From positions 20,559-84,558 of the forward strand of contig JBLNCA010000006.1 of assembly GCA_050260375.1 (NCBI GenBank): a DNA stretch of 64,000 bases, given 5' to 3'. The notes beneath the pieces are model-generated. The model made no database searches, was not told the origin of the DNA, and worked only from the letters and a program-made list of their open reading frames with translations. The position numbers were made by a program, and so were the translations under genes. The stretch is from Burkholderiales bacterium (GTDB taxonomy: Bacteria > Bacillota > Clostridia > Christensenellales > SZUA-584). Positions 18,798 to 61,351 of the stretch are shown one piece after another; the first letter of the stretch is position 1; each line of letters starts with the position of its first letter.

Positions 18798-18936
18798 TAC
18801 GGTGTCTACGGCAAGCCGTGAGGCTTGATGGGGTGTATAGAGCGGTGCACGCGCGTATACAAAAACGCGAGGGCAAAGCAAGGCTTGAATAAATACGGGG
18901 TCCCCGGCAAGCCGTGAGGCTTGATGGGGTGTGTAT
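18798..18936 (+). repeat. Two copies of the ~42-bp palindromic repeat (18798-18839, 18894-18936)
   Basis: Shared cggcaagccgtgaggcttgatggggtgt core; the second copy begins tacggggtcccc. Confidence 0.88.
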
Positions 18937-19138: not shown

Positions 19139-22099
19139 ATGAAGACGTTTAAAAAAATATTGATGATATTATTTATTGGCGCGGTATTAGCGGGAGTCAT
19201 ATTCTTACTGCCTGATTTGAACGGGCCGGCCGACGCGAGCCCCGCTCCTGCTTCCGAAGTGTCGGGAGTGATCATAAACGAGGTGATGACCAGCAACAAG
19301 GGCATATACCCCGACGACAACGGCAACAGCAGCGACTGGGTTGAGTTTTACAATACTACTGACAACGATATCAGCCTGAATAACTGCGGGCTTTCGGACG
19401 ATGAAACAAAGCCGAACAAATGGCCGTTTCCAAACGTAACCATTAAAGCGCACGGCTATCTTGTCGTGTTTCTTTCCGGCAATTCCAGATACAGCCCCGA
19501 AAATGGCGTGATACACAGCTCGGTTAAATTGAGCTCTCAGGGCGAAAAGCTGATAATGTCGAACGTCGCCGGTAAACCTTTGGATTCCGTCGATATACCC
19601 CAGATGCCCGATAACGTATCCTACGGGCTGGTAAACGGCGAGTGGCAGCAGATGAGCAACATCACGCCCGGCTTTGAAAACAGCGACGCCGGGTATCAGG
19701 CGTTCAGGGCAACGATGACGGTGCCGGATTCGCCTGTAATTATAAACGAAGTAATGCCGTCTAATTACATGACGATAGCGGATTCAAACGGCGTATATAC
19801 CGACTGGGTTGAGATAATCAACAAAAGCGGCGAGGACGTTAATTTATACGGGTACGGGCTCTCCGACGACGTAAACGACCCGCTAAAATGGCGCTTCCCC
19901 GATATTACGCTGAAAGCGGGGCAGCCCTTGCTTGTGTTCTGCTCGGGCATAAAAGCCCCTTACAGCGGAGAAGGGCCTCTTTATGCGGATTTTAAACTGT
20001 CTTCGGCCGGTTCGGCTATAGTGCTTTCCGATATGCAGGGTCGCCTTATGGATAGCGTAGCCGTAGGCGACGTGCCCGCAGACTGGTCGTACGAGCGCGG
20101 CTTAAAAGACGGCGCGCCTTCGGGCGAATGGGCGCAAGGCTGCCAGCCGACGCCGGGCTATCCCAACACGGAGGCGGGGTTTGCCGAGTTCTTAAACAAC
20201 AACCAGCTCGCGCTCGGCGATATCGTTATCTCCGAAGTGCTTACGTCCAATAACGCGGTAGACACGGGCGAGGGTAGCAATAACGATTACATTGAGATAG
20301 AAAATCGCGGAGCTAGCGCCGTAAACCTTAAGGGATACGGCCTTACGGATAACGCGTCCAACCCTGCCAAGTTCCGCTTTCCGGACGTAACATTGCAGCC
20401 GGGAGCCCAGATAAAAGTGCTTGCGACGGGAGTTGACGTAACGGTCGGCCAGGAATTGTGCGCGCCGTTCAAATTAAGCAGGCTGGGTACGACGGTAGCG
20501 CTGTTTAACGCGCAGGACCAGCTTATTGACAGGTACTTTATAGGAACGCTTCCGCAGAACGTTTCAATAGGCAGGGAAGCGGGGCAGACCGCGCTTGCTT
20601 ATTACACGACGCCCACGCCGGGCGCTGCGAATACCGGCGGCAAGGCAGGGTTTGTGGGCAATGTGCAGTTCGACCAGCAGCCCGGCAAATACGACGGGGC
20701 CATACAGCTGTCGCTCTCTTCCGCGGAAGGGGCCGACATATACTACACTACGGACGGCAGCACTCCGTCGCAGAGTTCCAATAAGTACTCGGGGCCTATA
20801 ACGATAGACAAGACGACGCCAATAAGGGCCAAAGCGTTCAGGGAAGGCTACATAGAAAGCCCGGTGGCTACGGGCACGTATTTCATAAGCGCGGCGCATA
20901 CGCTGCCCATTGTTTCGATTGCAACGGATGAACATTTGCTGTTTGACCCGACGACCGGCATATACATGCCGGGGCCTAACGCTACCAAAGACAGCAATGG
21001 TTTTTACAAAAACGCAAATTTCCAGAGCGATAACGAAGTACCCGCATCGTTTGAGGTATACGACGAGGGCGGACAACGGGTGTTTCAGCAGGATATAGGC
21101 CTCGCTATGACAGGAGGGCTGACGCTTTCCCTGAAGGAGCAAAAGTCTTTCGCTATATACGCGCGAAGCCAATATGGTAACAGCACGATGGCGTACCCGT
21201 TCTTCCAAAACCGCGATTTCACCGAGTATAAGTCGCTGATACTGCGCACAGGCGGGCGCGAGGGCTCAATGGTAACAAAGCTTAACACATACGTCGCGCT
21301 GAGCCTTGTGGATGGCAAGATGAACGTACTGACGCAGGCAGCCAAGCCTTGCGTGGTATACATCAACGGCAGATACTGGGGCGTGTACTACATGATGGAG
21401 AAACGCAACAAGTACATGGTAGCGCAGCACGAGGGCGTCACGGACGAGAACGTAATTGACGCAATCAACCTTGCTAAAGGCTTCACTCAGGTTAACAATG
21501 GATCGAGCGAAGGGTATAAGGAGATATACAATTACATAAGCACGCATGATCTGTCGGCAAAGGAGAACTACGATTGGGTCGCCGCGCGGCTTGATACCGA
21601 CAGCTTTATGGACTTCATTATAAACGAGATATACATCGCCAACAACGATGTTGGTAATGTTCAGTTCTATCAGATACCACCGGACGGAAAATGGAAACAG
21701 ATATATCAGGACCTCGATATCTCATTCTATTCGTTCGACACGGTTGCGAAGCGTATGGATCCGAAAACCACCGGGTCGGATATTTTCAACGCGCTGCTGA
21801 AATACAAGCCGTGGAAGGACGCGTTTATAGAGAGGTTCGCCTGGGCGCTTAAGGAAATATATAATACCGAGCGAGTGACCTCTATGATAGACGAAGCGGC
21901 GAACCTGTTGCGCGGTGAGGTTGCGGCGGAGCATCAGCGCTGGAGCGGCGAGCGGCCGACGCCCGAAAAATGGGAAGAGGGCGTGAAAGCTTTGAAGAAT
22001 TTTGCTGCAATACGAGGAAAGGCGGTTGTCAACGATCTGAAGAAGAATCTTTCACTGACGCCGGAGCAGATACAGATGCTCGAGAACGCGGTGAAATAA
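19139..22099 (+). CDS. Membrane-anchored CotH-family kinase with three lamin-tail domains and an Fn3-like domain
   Basis: Three (V/I)I(N/S)EV..SN...DW/YVE repeats, IYYTTDGSTP, YINGRYWGVYYMME, NNDVGN and QDLD motifs. Confidence 0.85.
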   Translation: MKTFKKILMILFIGAVLAGVIFLLPDLNGPADASPAPASEVSGVIINEVMTSNKGIYPDDNGNSSDWVEFYNTTDNDISLNNCGLSDDETKPNKWPFPNVTIKAHGYLVVFLSGNSRYSPENGVIHSSVKLSSQGEKLIMSNVAGKPLDSVDIPQMPDNVSYGLVNGEWQQMSNITPGFENSDAGYQAFRATMTVPDSPVIINEVMPSNYMTIADSNGVYTDWVEIINKSGEDVNLYGYGLSDDVNDPLKWRFPDITLKAGQPLLVFCSGIKAPYSGEGPLYADFKLSSAGSAIVLSDMQGRLMDSVAVGDVPADWSYERGLKDGAPSGEWAQGCQPTPGYPNTEAGFAEFLNNNQLALGDIVISEVLTSNNAVDTGEGSNNDYIEIENRGASAVNLKGYGLTDNASNPAKFRFPDVTLQPGAQIKVLATGVDVTVGQELCAPFKLSRLGTTVALFNAQDQLIDRYFIGTLPQNVSIGREAGQTALAYYTTPTPGAANTGGKAGFVGNVQFDQQPGKYDGAIQLSLSSAEGADIYYTTDGSTPSQSSNKYSGPITIDKTTPIRAKAFREGYIESPVATGTYFISAAHTLPIVSIATDEHLLFDPTTGIYMPGPNATKDSNGFYKNANFQSDNEVPASFEVYDEGGQRVFQQDIGLAMTGGLTLSLKEQKSFAIYARSQYGNSTMAYPFFQNRDFTEYKSLILRTGGREGSMVTKLNTYVALSLVDGKMNVLTQAAKPCVVYINGRYWGVYYMMEKRNKYMVAQHEGVTDENVIDAINLAKGFTQVNNGSSEGYKEIYNYISTHDLSAKENYDWVAARLDTDSFMDFIINEIYIANNDVGNVQFYQIPPDGKWKQIYQDLDISFYSFDTVAKRMDPKTTGSDIFNALLKYKPWKDAFIERFAWALKEIYNTERVTSMIDEAANLLRGEVAAEHQRWSGERPTPEKWEEGVKALKNFAAIRGKAVVNDLKKNLSLTPEQIQMLENAVK

Positions 22100-32261: not shown

Positions 32262-32274
32262 AGCGCGCTTCTTA

Positions 32275-32358
32275 TACGGGGGCCCCAAAAAGACATGATA
32301 CTTTTTGGGGTGTAAATACGGGGTCCCCGGCAAACCGTTAGGTTTGATGGAGTGTGAA
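32275..32358 (+). repeat. Tandem pair of the palindromic repeat, 42-bp period
   Basis: tacgggggccccaaaaag-acatgata-ctttttggggtgtaaa followed by tacggggtccccggcaaaccgttaggtttgatggagtgtgaa. Confidence 0.88.
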
Positions 32359-32589: not shown

Positions 32590-32710
32590 TCTAAAACAAA
32601 TATAGCAAACAAAAAACAAATTCCGCGTAATTGTAAAAAGTCTATAGCAAATATAACAAACAAAAAACAAATCCAGCCTGATTGTATAAAACGAGGCTTT
32701 ACTCTAAAAT
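32590..32710 (+). promoter_or_regulatory. Two ~51-bp tandem units with CAAAT motifs 20 bp apart, abutting promoter TTGTAT-17-TAAAAT
   Basis: Units at 32590-32640 and 32641-32692; CAAAT at 32597/32617 and 32648/32668; -35 at 32682-32687, -10 at 32705-32710. Confidence 0.6.
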
Positions 32711-38057: not shown

Positions 38058-38100
38058 TATGGGGTCCCCAGAAAGACGTGAGGCTTTTTGGGGTGTGAAT
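38058..38100 (+). repeat. Copy of the palindromic repeat family
   Basis: tatggggtccccagaaag-acgtgagg-ctttttggggtgtgaat, just after a GC-rich hairpin at about 38013-38055. Confidence 0.88.
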
Positions 38101-43718: not shown

Positions 43719-43760
43719 ACACCCATAAAGCATTACGATCTTTTTTGGGGGACCCCGGTA
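43719..43760 (-). repeat. Copy of the palindromic repeat family between the mutS promoter and RBS
   Basis: acacccataaagcattacgatcttttttgggggaccccggta (reverse orientation). Confidence 0.7.
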
Positions 43761-43773
43761 TTTGGAGGACAGT

Positions 43774-46359
43774 ATGCAGCAGTTAACACCTATGATGAGA
43801 CAATACGTAGAGCTTAAGGAAAAATACAAAGACTGTTTGCTGATGTTTCGTCTTGGGGATTTTTATGAATTGTTTTTCGACGACGCTGTTTGCGCGTCCC
43901 GCGAATTGGAGATAACGCTTACCGGCAGGGACTGCGGCTTGCCCGAGCGAGCGCCCATGTGCGGAGTACCGTACCATTCGGTTCAGGGGTATATAGACAA
44001 GCTTATAAAGAAGGGCTACAAAGTTGCGATATGCGAACAGCTCACCGACCCCGCGCAGTCGCCCGGGCTTGTCGAGCGGGATGTGATAAGGGTTATAACG
44101 CCGGGCACCGTTACCGAGAACACGATGCTAAGCGATACCGACAACAACTACATACTCGCGCTGCATCGCGAAGGCGGCAGCGTCGGGCTCGCTTACGCCG
44201 ACGTTTCCACCGGCGCGTTTTTTGCAGGCGAGTGCGCCGCTGACGAGGAATACTCCGCCGTAATCAACGAGATATCGAGGATACTGCCCAGCGAGATAAT
44301 ATACTGTTCGGACGATAAGGATATAATAGGCAAGCTCGAAAACATTATAAATGAGCAGAGCATATTCATAAGCGAGTATCCCGGGTTCACGTTTGAGCGC
44401 GATACGGCGCTTGAATCGATAATGTCGCACTTTAATGTCACAGGCGTTTCGGGCTACGGCATAAGCGAGCAGAGCCCGGCGGTATGCGCGGCGGGCGCGC
44501 TTATCGACTACTTAAAAGAAACGCAGAAAAACGCGCTATCGCATATAAACAGCATACGCGTGATAGGCTCGAGCGATTTTATGGCGCTCGACGTGTTCAC
44601 GCGCAGTAACCTTGAGCTTACAAGAACGCTGCGCGAAGGCAAGGTTAAGGGTTCGCTTTACGGCACGCTTGACCGCACTAAGACGGCGATGGGGGGGAGG
44701 CTGTTAAAACGCTACATCAACGAGCCGCTTCAGGATATAAACGAGATACAGTTAAGGCTGGACGCCGTCGAGGAGATAAAAGGCGACCTGCGGCTTGCGG
44801 ACAGCATAGGGGAGGCGTTGGACGGCGTATATGACTTAGAAAGGCTTATATCGCGCATTTCATACTCAACGCTGGACGGGCGCAACTGCCTCTCGCTTAA
44901 GAGCTCGCTTGCAAGGCTGCCGCTGCTAAAGGACGCTATAAAAAACTGCAAGTCAACGCTGCTTATGCGCCTTTACTCGGGCCTCGACTGTATGGAGGAT
45001 ATATACGCGCTGCTTGACACCGCAATAGAAGAGGACGCCCCGGCTGGCATAACGGAAGGCGGCATAATAAAGAAGGGCTACAATGCCGAGATAGACGAGC
45101 TAAAAGAAGCCTCAAAGAAGGGAAAGTCATTCATAGCGTCGCTGGAGAGCACGGAGCGCGAAAGCACAGGCATAAAGAACCTGCGCGTAGGCTACAACAA
45201 GGTGTTCGGCTATTACATAGAGGTCACGAAATCGTATCTCGAGCTCGTCCCGTACAGATACATAAGAAAACAGACGCTTGCCAACTGCGAGCGTTTCGTG
45301 ACGCCCGAGCTTAAAGAGATGGAAGAAAAGCTGCTTGGCGCGGAGGAAAAGTGCGTTGCATTAGAGTACGAATGCTTCGTAGAGATAAGAAACAGGCTTT
45401 CGCAAAACATAAGCCGCTTCCAGAACGCCGCGAGGATAGTGGCCGAGCTCGACGTTTTACGCAGCCTGGGCGTAATAGCGTATGAAAACAACTATACAAA
45501 GCCTGTTATGTCGCAGAACGGCAAAATAAGCATATCGGGCGGCAGGCATCCCGTCGTCGAGACGTTTGTCAAGCAGTCGTTCGTAAAAAACGACACGCTG
45601 CTTACCGATGAAGAGAGCATAATGATACTCACAGGCCCAAACATGGCGGGCAAGAGCACGTACATGCGGCAGGTGGCGCTCATTGTGCTTATGGCGCATA
45701 TGGGAAGCTTCGTGCCCGCGGACAGCGCCCATATTTGCATCGTTGACAAGATATTTACGCGCGTGGGCGCTTCGGACAACCTTGCGTCCGGGCAGAGCAC
45801 GTTCATGGTGGAAATGAACGAGGTTGCGAACATACTCAACAACGCGACGCCGAGGAGCCTTCTGATTTTGGACGAGATAGGCAGAGGCACGAGCACGCTT
45901 GACGGGCTGTCTATCGCGTGGTCCGTCGTCGAGTTCATAAGCAAAAACATAAAGGCAAAAACGCTGTTCGCGACGCACTTCCATGAGCTCTCCGAACTGG
46001 AAGGCGTTGTGCCCGGCGTAAGCAATTATTCGATAACGGTGAAGGAAATGGCCGACACCGTAATATTCCTGCACAAGATTGTGCGCGGCGGAACGAATAA
46101 GAGCTTCGGCATAGAAGTCGCAAAGCTCGCCGGCGTACCCGAAGACGTGACGTCTCGGGCTAAGGCCATAATGAAGGCGCTGGTTGAAAAGGACGACAGC
46201 GTACTAGTCGTGCGCCGAAGCCGGCCGGAAAAGGAGTACGGCAGGGACGACCTTATCGCACAGCTTGCAGCCGTCAACCTCGACAACATTACACCGCTCG
46301 ATTCGCTCAAGCTGCTGAGCGAAATAAAGCACAGAATAGGCGGGAAGCGGCATGAATGA
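43774..46359 (+). CDS. mutS: DNA mismatch repair protein MutS
   Basis: TPMMRQY, GDFYELF, TGPNMAGKST, STFMVEM and DEIGRGTST motifs. Confidence 0.98.
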   Translation: MQQLTPMMRQYVELKEKYKDCLLMFRLGDFYELFFDDAVCASRELEITLTGRDCGLPERAPMCGVPYHSVQGYIDKLIKKGYKVAICEQLTDPAQSPGLVERDVIRVITPGTVTENTMLSDTDNNYILALHREGGSVGLAYADVSTGAFFAGECAADEEYSAVINEISRILPSEIIYCSDDKDIIGKLENIINEQSIFISEYPGFTFERDTALESIMSHFNVTGVSGYGISEQSPAVCAAGALIDYLKETQKNALSHINSIRVIGSSDFMALDVFTRSNLELTRTLREGKVKGSLYGTLDRTKTAMGGRLLKRYINEPLQDINEIQLRLDAVEEIKGDLRLADSIGEALDGVYDLERLISRISYSTLDGRNCLSLKSSLARLPLLKDAIKNCKSTLLMRLYSGLDCMEDIYALLDTAIEEDAPAGITEGGIIKKGYNAEIDELKEASKKGKSFIASLESTERESTGIKNLRVGYNKVFGYYIEVTKSYLELVPYRYIRKQTLANCERFVTPELKEMEEKLLGAEEKCVALEYECFVEIRNRLSQNISRFQNAARIVAELDVLRSLGVIAYENNYTKPVMSQNGKISISGGRHPVVETFVKQSFVKNDTLLTDEESIMILTGPNMAGKSTYMRQVALIVLMAHMGSFVPADSAHICIVDKIFTRVGASDNLASGQSTFMVEMNEVANILNNATPRSLLILDEIGRGTSTLDGLSIAWSVVEFISKNIKAKTLFATHFHELSELEGVVPGVSNYSITVKEMADTVIFLHKIVRGGTNKSFGIEVAKLAGVPEDVTSRAKAIMKALVEKDDSVLVVRRSRPEKEYGRDDLIAQLAAVNLDNITPLDSLKLLSEIKHRIGGKRHE

Positions 46360-48268
46360 GATAAGGCTGCTCCCGAAAAGCATATCAGACAAGATAGCCG
46401 CGGGCGAGGTGGTAGAGCGGCCTGCTAGCGTAGTCAAAGAGCTGGTTGAAAACGCGATAGACGCTAAAGCAAGCGCCGTCAGCATAAGCATTTCGGGCGG
46501 CGGTATAAGGGAGATCTCAGTCGCCGACAACGGCGTGGGCATAGCCTCGGACGACGTGCGGCTCGCGTTTGAAAAGCACGCGACGAGCAAGCTGTATACG
46601 CTTGGGGACTTAGAATATATAAGCACTCAGGGCTTCCGCGGTGAAGCGCTTTCCAGCATCGCGGCCGTGTCGATAGCGGAGATGAAGACAAAGCGCAGGG
46701 ACGAAGAGACCGGCACTCAAATACGCGTAAGCGGCGGGCGTCTGGATTATGCGAAGCCCGCTGGGCTGCCCGACGGAACGTCGGTGAACGTCAGCAATCT
46801 GTTTTACAATGTGCCCGCGAGGCGCAAGTTTTTAAGGAAAGAGTCGCAGGAAGCGGCGTATGTATCCGACCTTGTGTCGCGCTACATACTCGCGTTCCCC
46901 GAAATATCGTTCCACTATACGTCGGAAGGAAAGACTATATACCACAGCCCCGGCAACGGCGACCTCTCTTCGGCGATCTACTGTGTTTACGGAAGCGCTG
47001 CTCTGGACACAATTGTGTTTGTGCAGCATCAAACAAACGATATACAAGTATCAGGTTACGTGTCGCGTCCGGGCGCTATTATGAAAAACAGGAAGGCGGG
47101 CAGCGTTTTTGTGAACCGGCGCTATGTGAGGAACACGGCACTGCATGATATGGTAAAAAGCGCGTACGGAGAGACACTCGTAAAGGGCGAGACGCCGTTT
47201 TTCGTGCTAAATATAGAGCTGCCGTTTTCGGCGGTGGACGTAAACGTGCACCCCAATAAGCTGCAGGTGCGCTTTAAAGACACTTCGGCCGTTGAATACG
47301 TAATAAAGGAAGCGGTGTCAAAAGCGTGCGCCGCGCCGCGCGGCAGCGTGTTTACTGACGCTGCGGAGCCGCAAAAGCGCAGCGTCGTAGAGATGCGCGC
47401 GCCCGAAGGCGTGCAGGAAGGCTTCTTTTCCGGGTTTAATAACGGGGCCCCCATAAAGCCAAAAGCTTTATGGGGTGATAACAGCGGGGCCCCCATAAAG
47501 CCAAAAGCTTTATGGGATGATAGTAGCGGGGCTCCTATACTCAATACTTTTTGGGATGAAAACAGAAATGTTCTGAAAGAGCAGGAAACGGCTAACGCGG
47601 ACGCAAACGCTTACGATATTAGCGCGCAAAGTTCGGCCGAGCCGGAGCTTCAAAAGCATGAACAGCCGGAAAGCCCGGCAGCCCAAACTGAAGCCGCTAA
47701 GATAAGCGTTCAAAGCTACAGGTTGATAGGCTCGTTCGGCGCCACGTATGCGCTTGTAGAACAGGGCGACGACCTGCTTATAGTCGACCAGCACGCCGCG
47801 CACGAGCGGCTGCTTTACGAGAAATTCAAGAGCAGCAAAGCGCCTCTTTCGCAGGCTCTTTTATACCCTTACGTGTTTACGGCGTCGCATGAACAGAAAA
47901 ATGTGCTCGATGACAACATGGAGGCTTTTATCGCGGCGGGGTTCGATATAGAGCCGTTTGGCGCGCTGGAGTACAAGATAAGCGCAGTGCCCTCCATAGC
48001 GTCCGGCGCCGCCCCCGGCGAGCTGATAAACGACGCCCTTGCCGAAATACAGAGCGGGGGAGACGTAGTGCTGAAGCGCGAAGCGATAATTAAAGCGGCG
48101 TGCCGAAGCGCTGTAAAGGCGGGCGATAAGATGAGCGAAGCCGAGCTTAAAAGCCTTGTGGACAGCTTTCTTACATCGGGCGTAATGCCTACGTGCCCGC
48201 ACGGGCGGCCTGTGATATCGGTAATATCCAGAAAGCAGATAGAAAAGAGCTTTAAAAGAACAGTATGA
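46352..48268 (+). CDS. mutL: DNA mismatch repair endonuclease MutL
   Basis: IAAGEVVERP, GFRGEAL, DQHAAHER and CPHGRP motifs. Confidence 0.97.
   Translation: MNEIRLLPKSISDKIAAGEVVERPASVVKELVENAIDAKASAVSISISGGGIREISVADNGVGIASDDVRLAFEKHATSKLYTLGDLEYISTQGFRGEALSSIAAVSIAEMKTKRRDEETGTQIRVSGGRLDYAKPAGLPDGTSVNVSNLFYNVPARRKFLRKESQEAAYVSDLVSRYILAFPEISFHYTSEGKTIYHSPGNGDLSSAIYCVYGSAALDTIVFVQHQTNDIQVSGYVSRPGAIMKNRKAGSVFVNRRYVRNTALHDMVKSAYGETLVKGETPFFVLNIELPFSAVDVNVHPNKLQVRFKDTSAVEYVIKEAVSKACAAPRGSVFTDAAEPQKRSVVEMRAPEGVQEGFFSGFNNGAPIKPKALWGDNSGAPIKPKALWDDSSGAPILNTFWDENRNVLKEQETANADANAYDISAQSSAEPELQKHEQPESPAAQTEAAKISVQSYRLIGSFGATYALVEQGDDLLIVDQHAAHERLLYEKFKSSKAPLSQALLYPYVFTASHEQKNVLDDNMEAFIAAGFDIEPFGALEYKISAVPSIASGAAPGELINDALAEIQSGGDVVLKREAIIKAACRSAVKAGDKMSEAELKSLVDSFLTSGVMPTCPHGRPVISVISRKQIEKSFKRTV
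47441..47563 (+). repeat. Three in-frame tandem copies (42+42+39 bp) of the palindromic repeat inside mutL
   Basis: aacggggc-ccccataaagc-caaaa-gctttatgggg-tgataac and two diverging copies; encodes GAPIKPKALW twice and GAPILNTFW. Confidence 0.88.
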
Positions 48269-50926: not shown

Positions 50927-50959
50927 TGTCATTCAGAGGACCGAAGGGACGAAGAATCT
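50927..50959 (+). repeat. TGTCATTC...GAATCT REP-like element
   Basis: tgtcattcagaggaccgaagggacgaagaatct; resembles (T/C)GTC-class REPs; single copy in this window. Confidence 0.5.
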
Positions 50960-50974
50960 TTGCCAAATGCGGTT

Positions 50975-51057
50975 GGCCCCAAAAAGCCTCATGCCTTTTT
51001 GGGGACCCCCGTTATTTACACCCCAACAAGCCTTACGTCTTGTTGGGGACCCCGTTA
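50975..51057 (-). repeat. Tandem pair of the palindromic repeat, about 43-bp period
   Basis: ccccaaaaag-N8-ctttttggggacccccgtta and tttacaccccaacaag-N8-cttgttggggaccccgtta. Confidence 0.9.
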
Positions 51058-51084
51058 TTAAGCAAGCCGCTTACAGGGCCCAAT

Positions 51085-51107
51085 AAAAAACGCCCCTTGA
51101 AGGGGCG
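51085..51107 (-). terminator. Intrinsic terminator after lexA
   Basis: cgcccct-tga-aggggcg hairpin with an A run on the + strand. Confidence 0.7.
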
Positions 51108-51127
51108 GATGATCACTGAGTTAAAAG

Positions 51128-61304: not shown

Positions 61305-61346
61305 TTTACACCCCAAAAAGCCTCACGCCTTTTTGGGGACCCCGTA
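61305..61346 (-). repeat. Consensus-like copy of the palindromic repeat family
   Basis: Minus strand tacggggt-ccccaaaaag-gcgtgagg-ctttttgggg-tgtaaa; partial copy at about 61287-61304. Confidence 0.9.
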
Positions 61347-61351
61347 TATAT

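Follow-up and report, generated by a model that had tools for sequence, protein, structure and literature searches.

Palindromic repeats inserted in frame into protein-coding genes are already known, so the phenomenon treated here is not new. The Rickettsia palindromic elements (RPEs; PMC3184786; Ogata et al. 2000, 2002, as related in PMC10969869) occur both between genes and in frame within unrelated genes, where they add new peptide. Here we describe a dispersed 42-bp hairpin repeat, and in particular three in-frame copies of it within the mismatch repair gene mutL, in a 64,000-nucleotide stretch (positions 20,559 to 84,558 of contig JBLNCA010000006.1, assembly GCA_050260375.1; hereafter the window) from a bacterium of the order Christensenellales. 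Likened by its behavior, and set beside RPEs by description only, the 42-bp family appears to work as they do. Differences are nevertheless evident: according to PMC10969869, RPE-1 is about 150 bp long and nearly half of the RPEs are intragenic, whereas only 9 of 218 strong arrays of the 42-bp unit are gene-internal. The unit is also read in several frames and on both strands, grows head to tail inside genes, and belongs to a different phylum.

Other described systems share part of this picture. The GTAG/CGTC repetitive extragenic palindromes (REPs) are, in the account of Di Nocera et al. (2013, PMC3733652), high-copy hairpins of 20-40 bp found as singletons and clusters, mostly between genes; they often supply stop codons and sometimes lie in frame, including in DNA-repair genes, for which a mutator effect has already been speculated in print (PMC3733652). 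We rejected identity with these REPs: among 355 units of at least 20 bits, GTAG occurs at 2 and CGTC at 6, whereas GGGT precedes the stem in 247; neighboring units are predominantly head to tail and not inverted dimers, and no unit-flanked RAYT gene was found. The 6-bp repeat of Salmonella and Escherichia coli mutL resembles our case in being a tandem mutL repeat of variable copy number, but it is described (PMC2955026) as native coding sequence in the ATP-lid whose loss inactivates the gene, whereas the mutL units described here consist of foreign DNA, lie in the linker and show no hint of inactivating the gene. Yeast mitochondrial GC clusters such as GC42 are, as presented in PMC4478555, G+C-rich palindromes of about 40 bp with rapid presence/absence turnover and an unknown mobiliser; they differ in having a putative 2-nt target duplication, of which no fixed counterpart appears here, and in residing in an organelle, and no homology is claimed.

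The genome holding the window (G000) has a length of 2.88 Mb over 57 contigs, with 96% completeness; its 2449 genes were called with our own hexamer script rather than a standard annotator. Its mutL (46352..48268, + strand, 638 residues) is intact and forms an operon with mutS, miaA and a gene that we take, from its sequence, to be hfq, in the order mutS-mutL-miaA-hfq. As the original prediction had stated, codons 364-404 (47441..47563) consist of three in-frame units of 42, 42 and 39 bp, with the peptides given there. Unit 1 (47441..47482, codons 364-377) carries a perfect 11-bp stem with a 5-nt loop at 47449-47475 (-11.8 kcal/mol, z -4.1, with none of 200 shuffles equally stable), a layout that was correctly described except that one extra C separates ACGGGG from the stem. 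Unit 2 (47483..47524, codons 378-391) shares an identical 32-bp core with unit 1, differs from it at three positions, all non-synonymous, and folds into a 10-bp stem (z -3.0). Unit 3 (47525..47563, codons 392-404) is decayed and its hairpin is lost (z +0.9). The array is also detected by TRF, with a period of 42 and 2.3 copies.

Membership of these units in the repeat family was assessed with a profile hidden Markov model (HMM) trained on 118 copies that overlap no open reading frame (ORF) of at least 100 residues. This non-coding model gave 38.6 bits for unit 1 and 26.7 bits for unit 2, while the reversed genome gave no hit of 10 bits or more; unit 3 was not matched. A two-arm weight matrix built from 114 of the 118 copies scored unit 3 at 12.9 bits, and because this level is reached at only 3 of 4,036,252 background coding positions, unit 3 is, on its sequence, a decayed family member. 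The same matrix gave -2.6 or less on six unit-free MutL linkers. The first two units therefore stand far above background and the third weakly so. Unit 1 shares its subfamily with the closest intergenic copies. The frame read in mutL is open in 12 of the 13 copies of that subfamily, against 66 of 200 other copies, so a member of it could have entered mutL in this frame.

The family as a whole has a well-defined layout: an A/T-rich lead, CGGGG(T/C)CCCC, a variable stem-loop and GGGGTG. A strict pattern found 213 copies in the genome and none after base shuffling, and the HMM counted 423 units at 12 bits or more, with none in the reversed genome at 10 bits. These make up 261 arrays, 96 of them with two to seven units and a modal period of 42; neighboring units are head to tail in 154 of 162 cases, 72 of which have a period of exactly 42. 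Across 155 distinct copies, stem pair 7 is Watson-Crick in 144, against 71.7 after shuffling (maximum 90), a comparison that leaves the relatedness of copies uncontrolled. The written strand is the one that folds, because G-T outnumbers A-C 38 to 2 at pair 5; G-A pairs point the same way. A partial pattern detected the family in all five congeners (G001-G005), with 98 copies in G003, 44 in G005 and 2-6 in G001, G002 and G004. It was seen in 13 of the 18 genomes of the taxonomic family with a pattern whose gap was too short, which undercounts and was corrected for the genus only, and in none of 200 other genomes sampled from the class.

No published description of the repeat was found in a literature search that left most subscription papers outside, and the family is apparently undescribed. 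Rfam covariance models returned only tRNAs in the window and nothing near the gathering score in five repeat-rich loci. Several known families were considered and set aside. BoxC/PIT/TMECO patterns have no match in the genome, and the unit offers a third strand of 4 G, under the 6-nt minimum given for the TMECO triplex motif with its 9-nt stems (PMC4666352). At most 2 of 355 units match the degenerate pattern of the Ssn-related motif (SRM/NTS), as that pattern is given in PMC11893778; SRM-like repeats do exist in this genome as a separate family, sometimes adjacent to 42-bp units. A miniature inverted-repeat transposable element is also a poor match, the unit being asymmetric, without terminal inverted repeats and without a fixed target-site duplication.

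The mutL site was compared among relatives by a protein search with MutL residues 335-460, which gave 4 matches among 244 candidates, whose clusters added 6 more; these database proteins, related to the window MutL and including those labelled P0002-P0010, were aligned with MutL of eight genome relatives. No unit follows FFSGF in P0004 (87% core identity), in G001, G002 or G004 (78-79%), or in four further family members. One unit (+14 residues) is present in all six P0003-cluster proteins (93-94%), two units (+27) in G003, P0002 and P0005 (96%), and three (+41) in G000. The three unit-bearing groups form a single clade (support 94/91) with P0004 outside it, and the first unit of G003 keeps its stem through an altered inner pair. 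The insertion is thus clean, the peptide is absent wherever the insert is absent, and unit number varies from 0 to 3 at one site, as the original prediction anticipated. Its term "amplified" holds for the overall course from none to one to two or three units; single steps may have been contractions. A metagenome scan for near relatives of this MutL retrieved 80 loci, all distant (25-36% identity) and none with a unit at 10 bits, and the query used found no mutL in G005 (84% complete). Among the other genomes, G017 holds two near-identical mutL copies (C4:20730 and C1:1107087), and the G020 match to mutL has stop codons.

Sequencing runs, examined through their assembled contigs, tell a similar story. 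The window stretch is present in 17 runs, 15 of them labelled soil metagenome. Runs X1 and X3, from one study that is possibly the source of the assembly, contain exact contigs for the left flank, the junction of units 1 and 2, and units 2 and 3 with the right flank, at depths of 28, 24 and 28.1 in X1 and 30.6, 36.1 and 28.8 in X3. An assembly artefact or chance resemblance is effectively refuted: although the assembly is in 57 contigs and the whole array is spanned by no single contig of the runs examined, the junction contigs are exact and of matching depth in two runs, independent proteins carry one and two units, and among 4.0 million background coding positions the weight matrix has no hit at 20 bits. 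Both runs also contain a second allele (depth 18.8 in X1 and 18.4 in X3), in which 118 bases are replaced by 37 unit-3-like bases, a net loss of 81 bp that leaves one unit in frame. Because it differs further from the window, with 5 differences in 73 left-flank bases in X3, this allele is, judging from these contigs, that of a diverged sister strain and not of a clone-mate. In run X5, which belongs to another study, contigs cover unit 1, the junction and a last unit like that of G003; if these come from one strain, the G003 lineage has three units too, and the two units of G003 may be a contraction. The RNA run X15 has one repeat copy with foreign flanks and does not cover mutL; run X9 has a foreign copy only.

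The insertion lies where the MutL fold would seem to accommodate it. The Pfam domains HATPase_c (residues 22-125), DNA_mis_repair (210-326) and MutL_C (460-593) leave free an inter-domain linker (47342..47707, + strand, about residues 331-452) that contains the insert and is predicted to be disordered. An AlphaFold2 model based on a 58-sequence alignment gave confident domains and a per-residue confidence (pLDDT) below 50 over residues 331-430 and 432-452, to which low alignment depth in the linker contributes; a single-sequence model was unusable (pLDDT 34) and was dropped. The ATPase, clamp-binding and endonuclease motifs, with the meanings that we take them to have, were all located and match invariant columns of the 58-sequence alignment. 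Relative to G003, synonymous and non-synonymous codon changes number 4 and 10 in the insert and 73 and 20 in the domains (p 0.0004), so the peptide is not visibly constrained and the insert seems to evolve like neutral DNA; the rest of the linker, with 10 and 12, does not differ from the insert (p 0.48). Some points weigh against this view. The neutrality estimate draws on 27 codons, for which it is uncertain which units are orthologous. Some P0003-cluster proteins have a nearly unchanged unit 1 peptide, for which low divergence, gene conversion and weak constraint are each a possible reason. As a protein segment, the insert is predicted from the gene sequence.

mutL is not the sole host. Although called genes cover 80% of the genome, just 9 of the 218 strong arrays fall inside them. 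The repeat is thus strongly underrepresented in coding DNA, presumably because coding insertions are mostly removed or are avoided through an A/T-rich target preference. The scan for further in-frame copies that the original prediction had called for found eight genes besides mutL, counted after two weak gene-internal hits (14.6 and 15.3 bits) had been dropped as probable chance. Empty orthologous sites were found for a GH4 glycosidase (+14 residues), DprA (+11), IF-2 (+14), a MocA-like/HD protein (+13) and two unnamed proteins (+14 each). A metallophosphoesterase (G000:C45:132098-133090) carries three antisense in-frame units, +42 residues near its C-terminus, at a site empty in all five congeners; it appears to be a younger parallel of the mutL insertion, with 42 residues gained since the split from the nearest congener. 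In the ninth host, named cell-wall-hydrolase-like by sequence reading, the unit is common to G003, and an empty site did not turn up. A further 11 arrays extend over gene ends, 9 of them including the stop codon (e.g., C45:81649-82347, C31:3073-4101 and C7:40474-41796), and no frame-breaking insert was found in a small sample of 69 mappable G003 arrays. In G005, a subtilisin-like ORF has two in-frame units of the unit-1 subfamily (G005:C9:190611-190694) at its N-terminus, where they precede a signal-peptide-like stretch and the true start may be downstream.

Taken with the profile scores, the empty sites in relatives and the reads, these data uphold the core of the original prediction, that a non-coding repeat has been turned into coding sequence. 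Each of the three conditions under which that prediction was to fail was checked, and none of them held. We put at roughly 80% the probability that the mutL array is a tolerated in-frame insertion with stepwise copy-number change, a nearly neutral passenger of its gene. The ancestor of a small clade would have received the repeat once, in a linker predicted to be disordered, and copy number would then have changed through slippage or unequal recombination. The insert would have survived because 42 and 39 are multiples of three and the subfamily frame is free of stop codons. Loops of 39-42 nt exceed what MutS corrects, and those arising from copy-number change would escape its correction. It is improbable that unit number instead acts as an adaptive rheostat, tuning linker length and repair reach with longer alleles being selected. 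In its favor, shortening the E. coli MutL linker from 100 to 60 residues abolished roadblock bypass in vitro and left incision intact, as reported in 10.1101/463133; the linker has 86-108 residues in unit-free close relatives against 131 here; and three insertion-bearing states persist in lineages 4-7% apart in the core. The same report describes the shortened protein as fully functional absent a roadblock, however, and linkers of at least 131 residues occur in 27 of 57 other MutL proteins (range 86-186, median 128), the insert lacks an excess of synonymous change, and like insertions are found in unrelated genes. By analogy with E. coli, a subtle effect of linker length is possible, because a 40-residue deletion there abolishes bypass.

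Still less credit can be given to a contingency locus, in which slippage would toggle repair on and off within a clone. The Salmonella 6-bp repeat described in PMC2955026 is a precedent, a mutator role has been speculated for REPs in DNA-repair genes (PMC3733652), and the identical core of units 1 and 2 offers a slippage substrate. In our case, the repeat lies in the linker and not in the ATP-lid, and gain or loss of units cannot switch mutL off, because they are whole codons. Core branch lengths, measured from the common node, are unrelated to unit number, if with low power (0.088 in the unit-free P0004, 0.080 in G000 and 0.048 in P0003), and DNA-related proteins are only two of the nine hosts, MutL and DprA. 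The proposal that instability yields mutators is therefore unsupported: domains and motifs are intact, linker length is within the natural range, no constraint is seen at the protein level, the one-unit allele of X1 and X3 comes from a diverged strain, and mutL is not special among the host genes. A role of the unit as nucleic-acid structure (RNA stability, pausing or protein binding), retained in mutL as well, is also very unlikely. The stem covariation, the single folded strand and the maintained stem of the G003 first unit would suit it, as would the position of 38 of 217 arrays directly 3' of a terminator-like hairpin, a place held by 24 of 1500 intergenic positions drawn at random. Against it, the hairpin of unit 3 is lost, 4 of the 8 other hosts with the clearest inserts carry the repeat antisense, orientation follows replication at least as well as transcription, and selection on mobile source copies would produce covariation just as well. 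The mutL array is thus likely to be tolerated selfish DNA of the kind known from Rickettsia, rather than a mutation-rate switch.

Turnover in the family is fast, to judge from orthologous sites of G000 and G003, 24 of 72 and 28 of 79 of which are empty in the other genome, in a comparison covering 1.07 Mb of the approximately 2.7 Mb of G003. Clean single inserts between the two are mostly 41-45 bp long. A fixed target-site duplication was not found; the flanks of 67 singletons show weak A/T microhomology only (the best 4-mer has z about 3, with 11 exact where 4.8 are expected; at the offsets tried, 7- and 8-mers gave no exact match), and one filled/empty pair has an 8-nt duplication. With the leading strand taken from GC skew, and 12 ambiguous arrays and 31 on contigs shorter than 25 kb excluded, the folded strand has the leading-strand sequence (that of the lagging-strand template) in 128 of 175 arrays. 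The bias holds where transcription does not predict it (48 of 70, p 0.0025).

Insertion sequences of the IS200/IS605 family, which transpose as single strands at the lagging-strand template (PMC5027513), offer a mechanistic analogy. As described there and in 10.1101/279083, they share with our repeat a hairpin on one strand and the lagging-strand-template bias, and 42-bp units also lie beside IS200 right ends; they differ in that the unit has one hairpin, no left and right end pair, no transposase and no fixed target tetranucleotide established. Two IS200 copies in G005 have units no more than about 10 nt from their right-end hairpin, and in G000 units precede 4 of 25 right-end-like fragments by 2-8 nt. 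The latter lie within composite miniature elements that combine IS200 end fragments with an SRM-like hairpin repeat and one to four family units (C37:54170-54450, C37:149560-149914, C43:100-358, C16:6145-6330, C20:60-305 and C52:30221-30723). In the window, one such element occupies 50940-51113, where a tandem pair interrupts an IS200 right-end-like fragment. Tentatively, and at somewhat less than even odds, we suggest that an IS200-type HUH transposase mobilises the repeat in trans and that the units travel as single-stranded DNA on the lagging-strand template. The adjacency to IS200 could also reflect a shared preference for T-rich sites after terminators. Other results count against such mobilisation: the strand bias is not significant where transcription predicts the opposite orientation (15 of 22, p 0.13), no dedicated transposase was found, with none of the five Y1 (PF01797) matches in G000 unit-flanked on both sides, and G001 and G002 (89% and 82% complete) yielded no Y1 match.

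The search for a mobiliser was extended to congeners, nuclease genes and viral contigs. None of 15 PF01797 matches in three of the five congeners, whose genomes are incomplete, is flanked on both sides by units, and the nine G000 genes that do have units on both sides look like ordinary genes. A RAYT/REPtron system is unsupported, no repeat-flanked RAYT gene having been found; weak Y1_Tnp matches at G000:C3:21197-21433 and other loci resemble solitary, partly degenerate RAYT-type proteins and lack flanking copies of the 42-bp repeat. GIY-YIG (Ssn) nucleases are likewise unsupported as mobilisers, with units at 1 of 15 loci, about 1 kb off and on one side, as are DUF559 nucleases, where unit-like sequence flanks 2 of 15 loci (both in G005) and none of the five nuclease loci of G000. 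Short DUF559 and GIY-YIG nuclease genes, including some in G000, are flanked by hairpin families of their own, distinct from the 42-bp family. The unit core was also seen nested as a module in other hairpin repeats (G005:C37, G012:C36, G006:C5 and G005:C9), which resemble the flanks of such nuclease genes. Prophage-like contigs of IMG/VR contain an intergenic hairpin with the same two G/C-run ends and a different stem, which suggests that this layout extends beyond the present lineage; at 20 viral loci scanned, no recognisable transposase stood beside the motif among the matches listed.

Besides mutL, the window holds further units. Two intergenic pairs, which the original prediction had likened to the mutL array in layout and period, do belong to the family: that at 32274..32356 (+ strand; 35.5 and 43.3 bits) lies between called genes, as does that at 50977..51060, which sits in a decayed IS200 right-end-like stretch, is on the - strand and has a period of 44 rather than 42. 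Two more units are found at 18809..18933 (+; 27.1 and 52.3 bits) and single ones at 38061..38097 (+; 44.8 bits) and 61306..61349 (-; 51.2 bits), and a partial unit at 43722..43761 (-; 19.5 bits) abuts the start of the mutS ORF directly upstream. The intergenic region of the first pair also contains an A/T-rich 51-bp tandem pair with 84% matches (32590-32691).

A more far-reaching account can be framed, which we consider unlikely. The 42-bp unit would be a transposase-less mini-element, carried at the replication fork by IS200-type enzymes, that serves as a 14-codon cassette for lengthening protein linkers; unit number would be a heritable rheostat of mismatch repair, taking the MutL linker from about 95 to 131 residues across the range that governs bypass in E. 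coli, and the mutL linkers of many phyla would have been captured since longer linkers were favored. Considered as a tolerated passenger, the array is new in other respects: it belongs to a graded natural allele series of one repair gene, in which close relatives carry 0, 1, 2 or 3 units; two mutL alleles occur together in soil samples; and another gene, the metallophosphoesterase, has been extended by 42 residues. The case makes it testable whether repeat inserts in DNA-repair genes alter the mutation rate, as speculated in PMC3733652, and how repeats without a transposase or a tag of their own spread.

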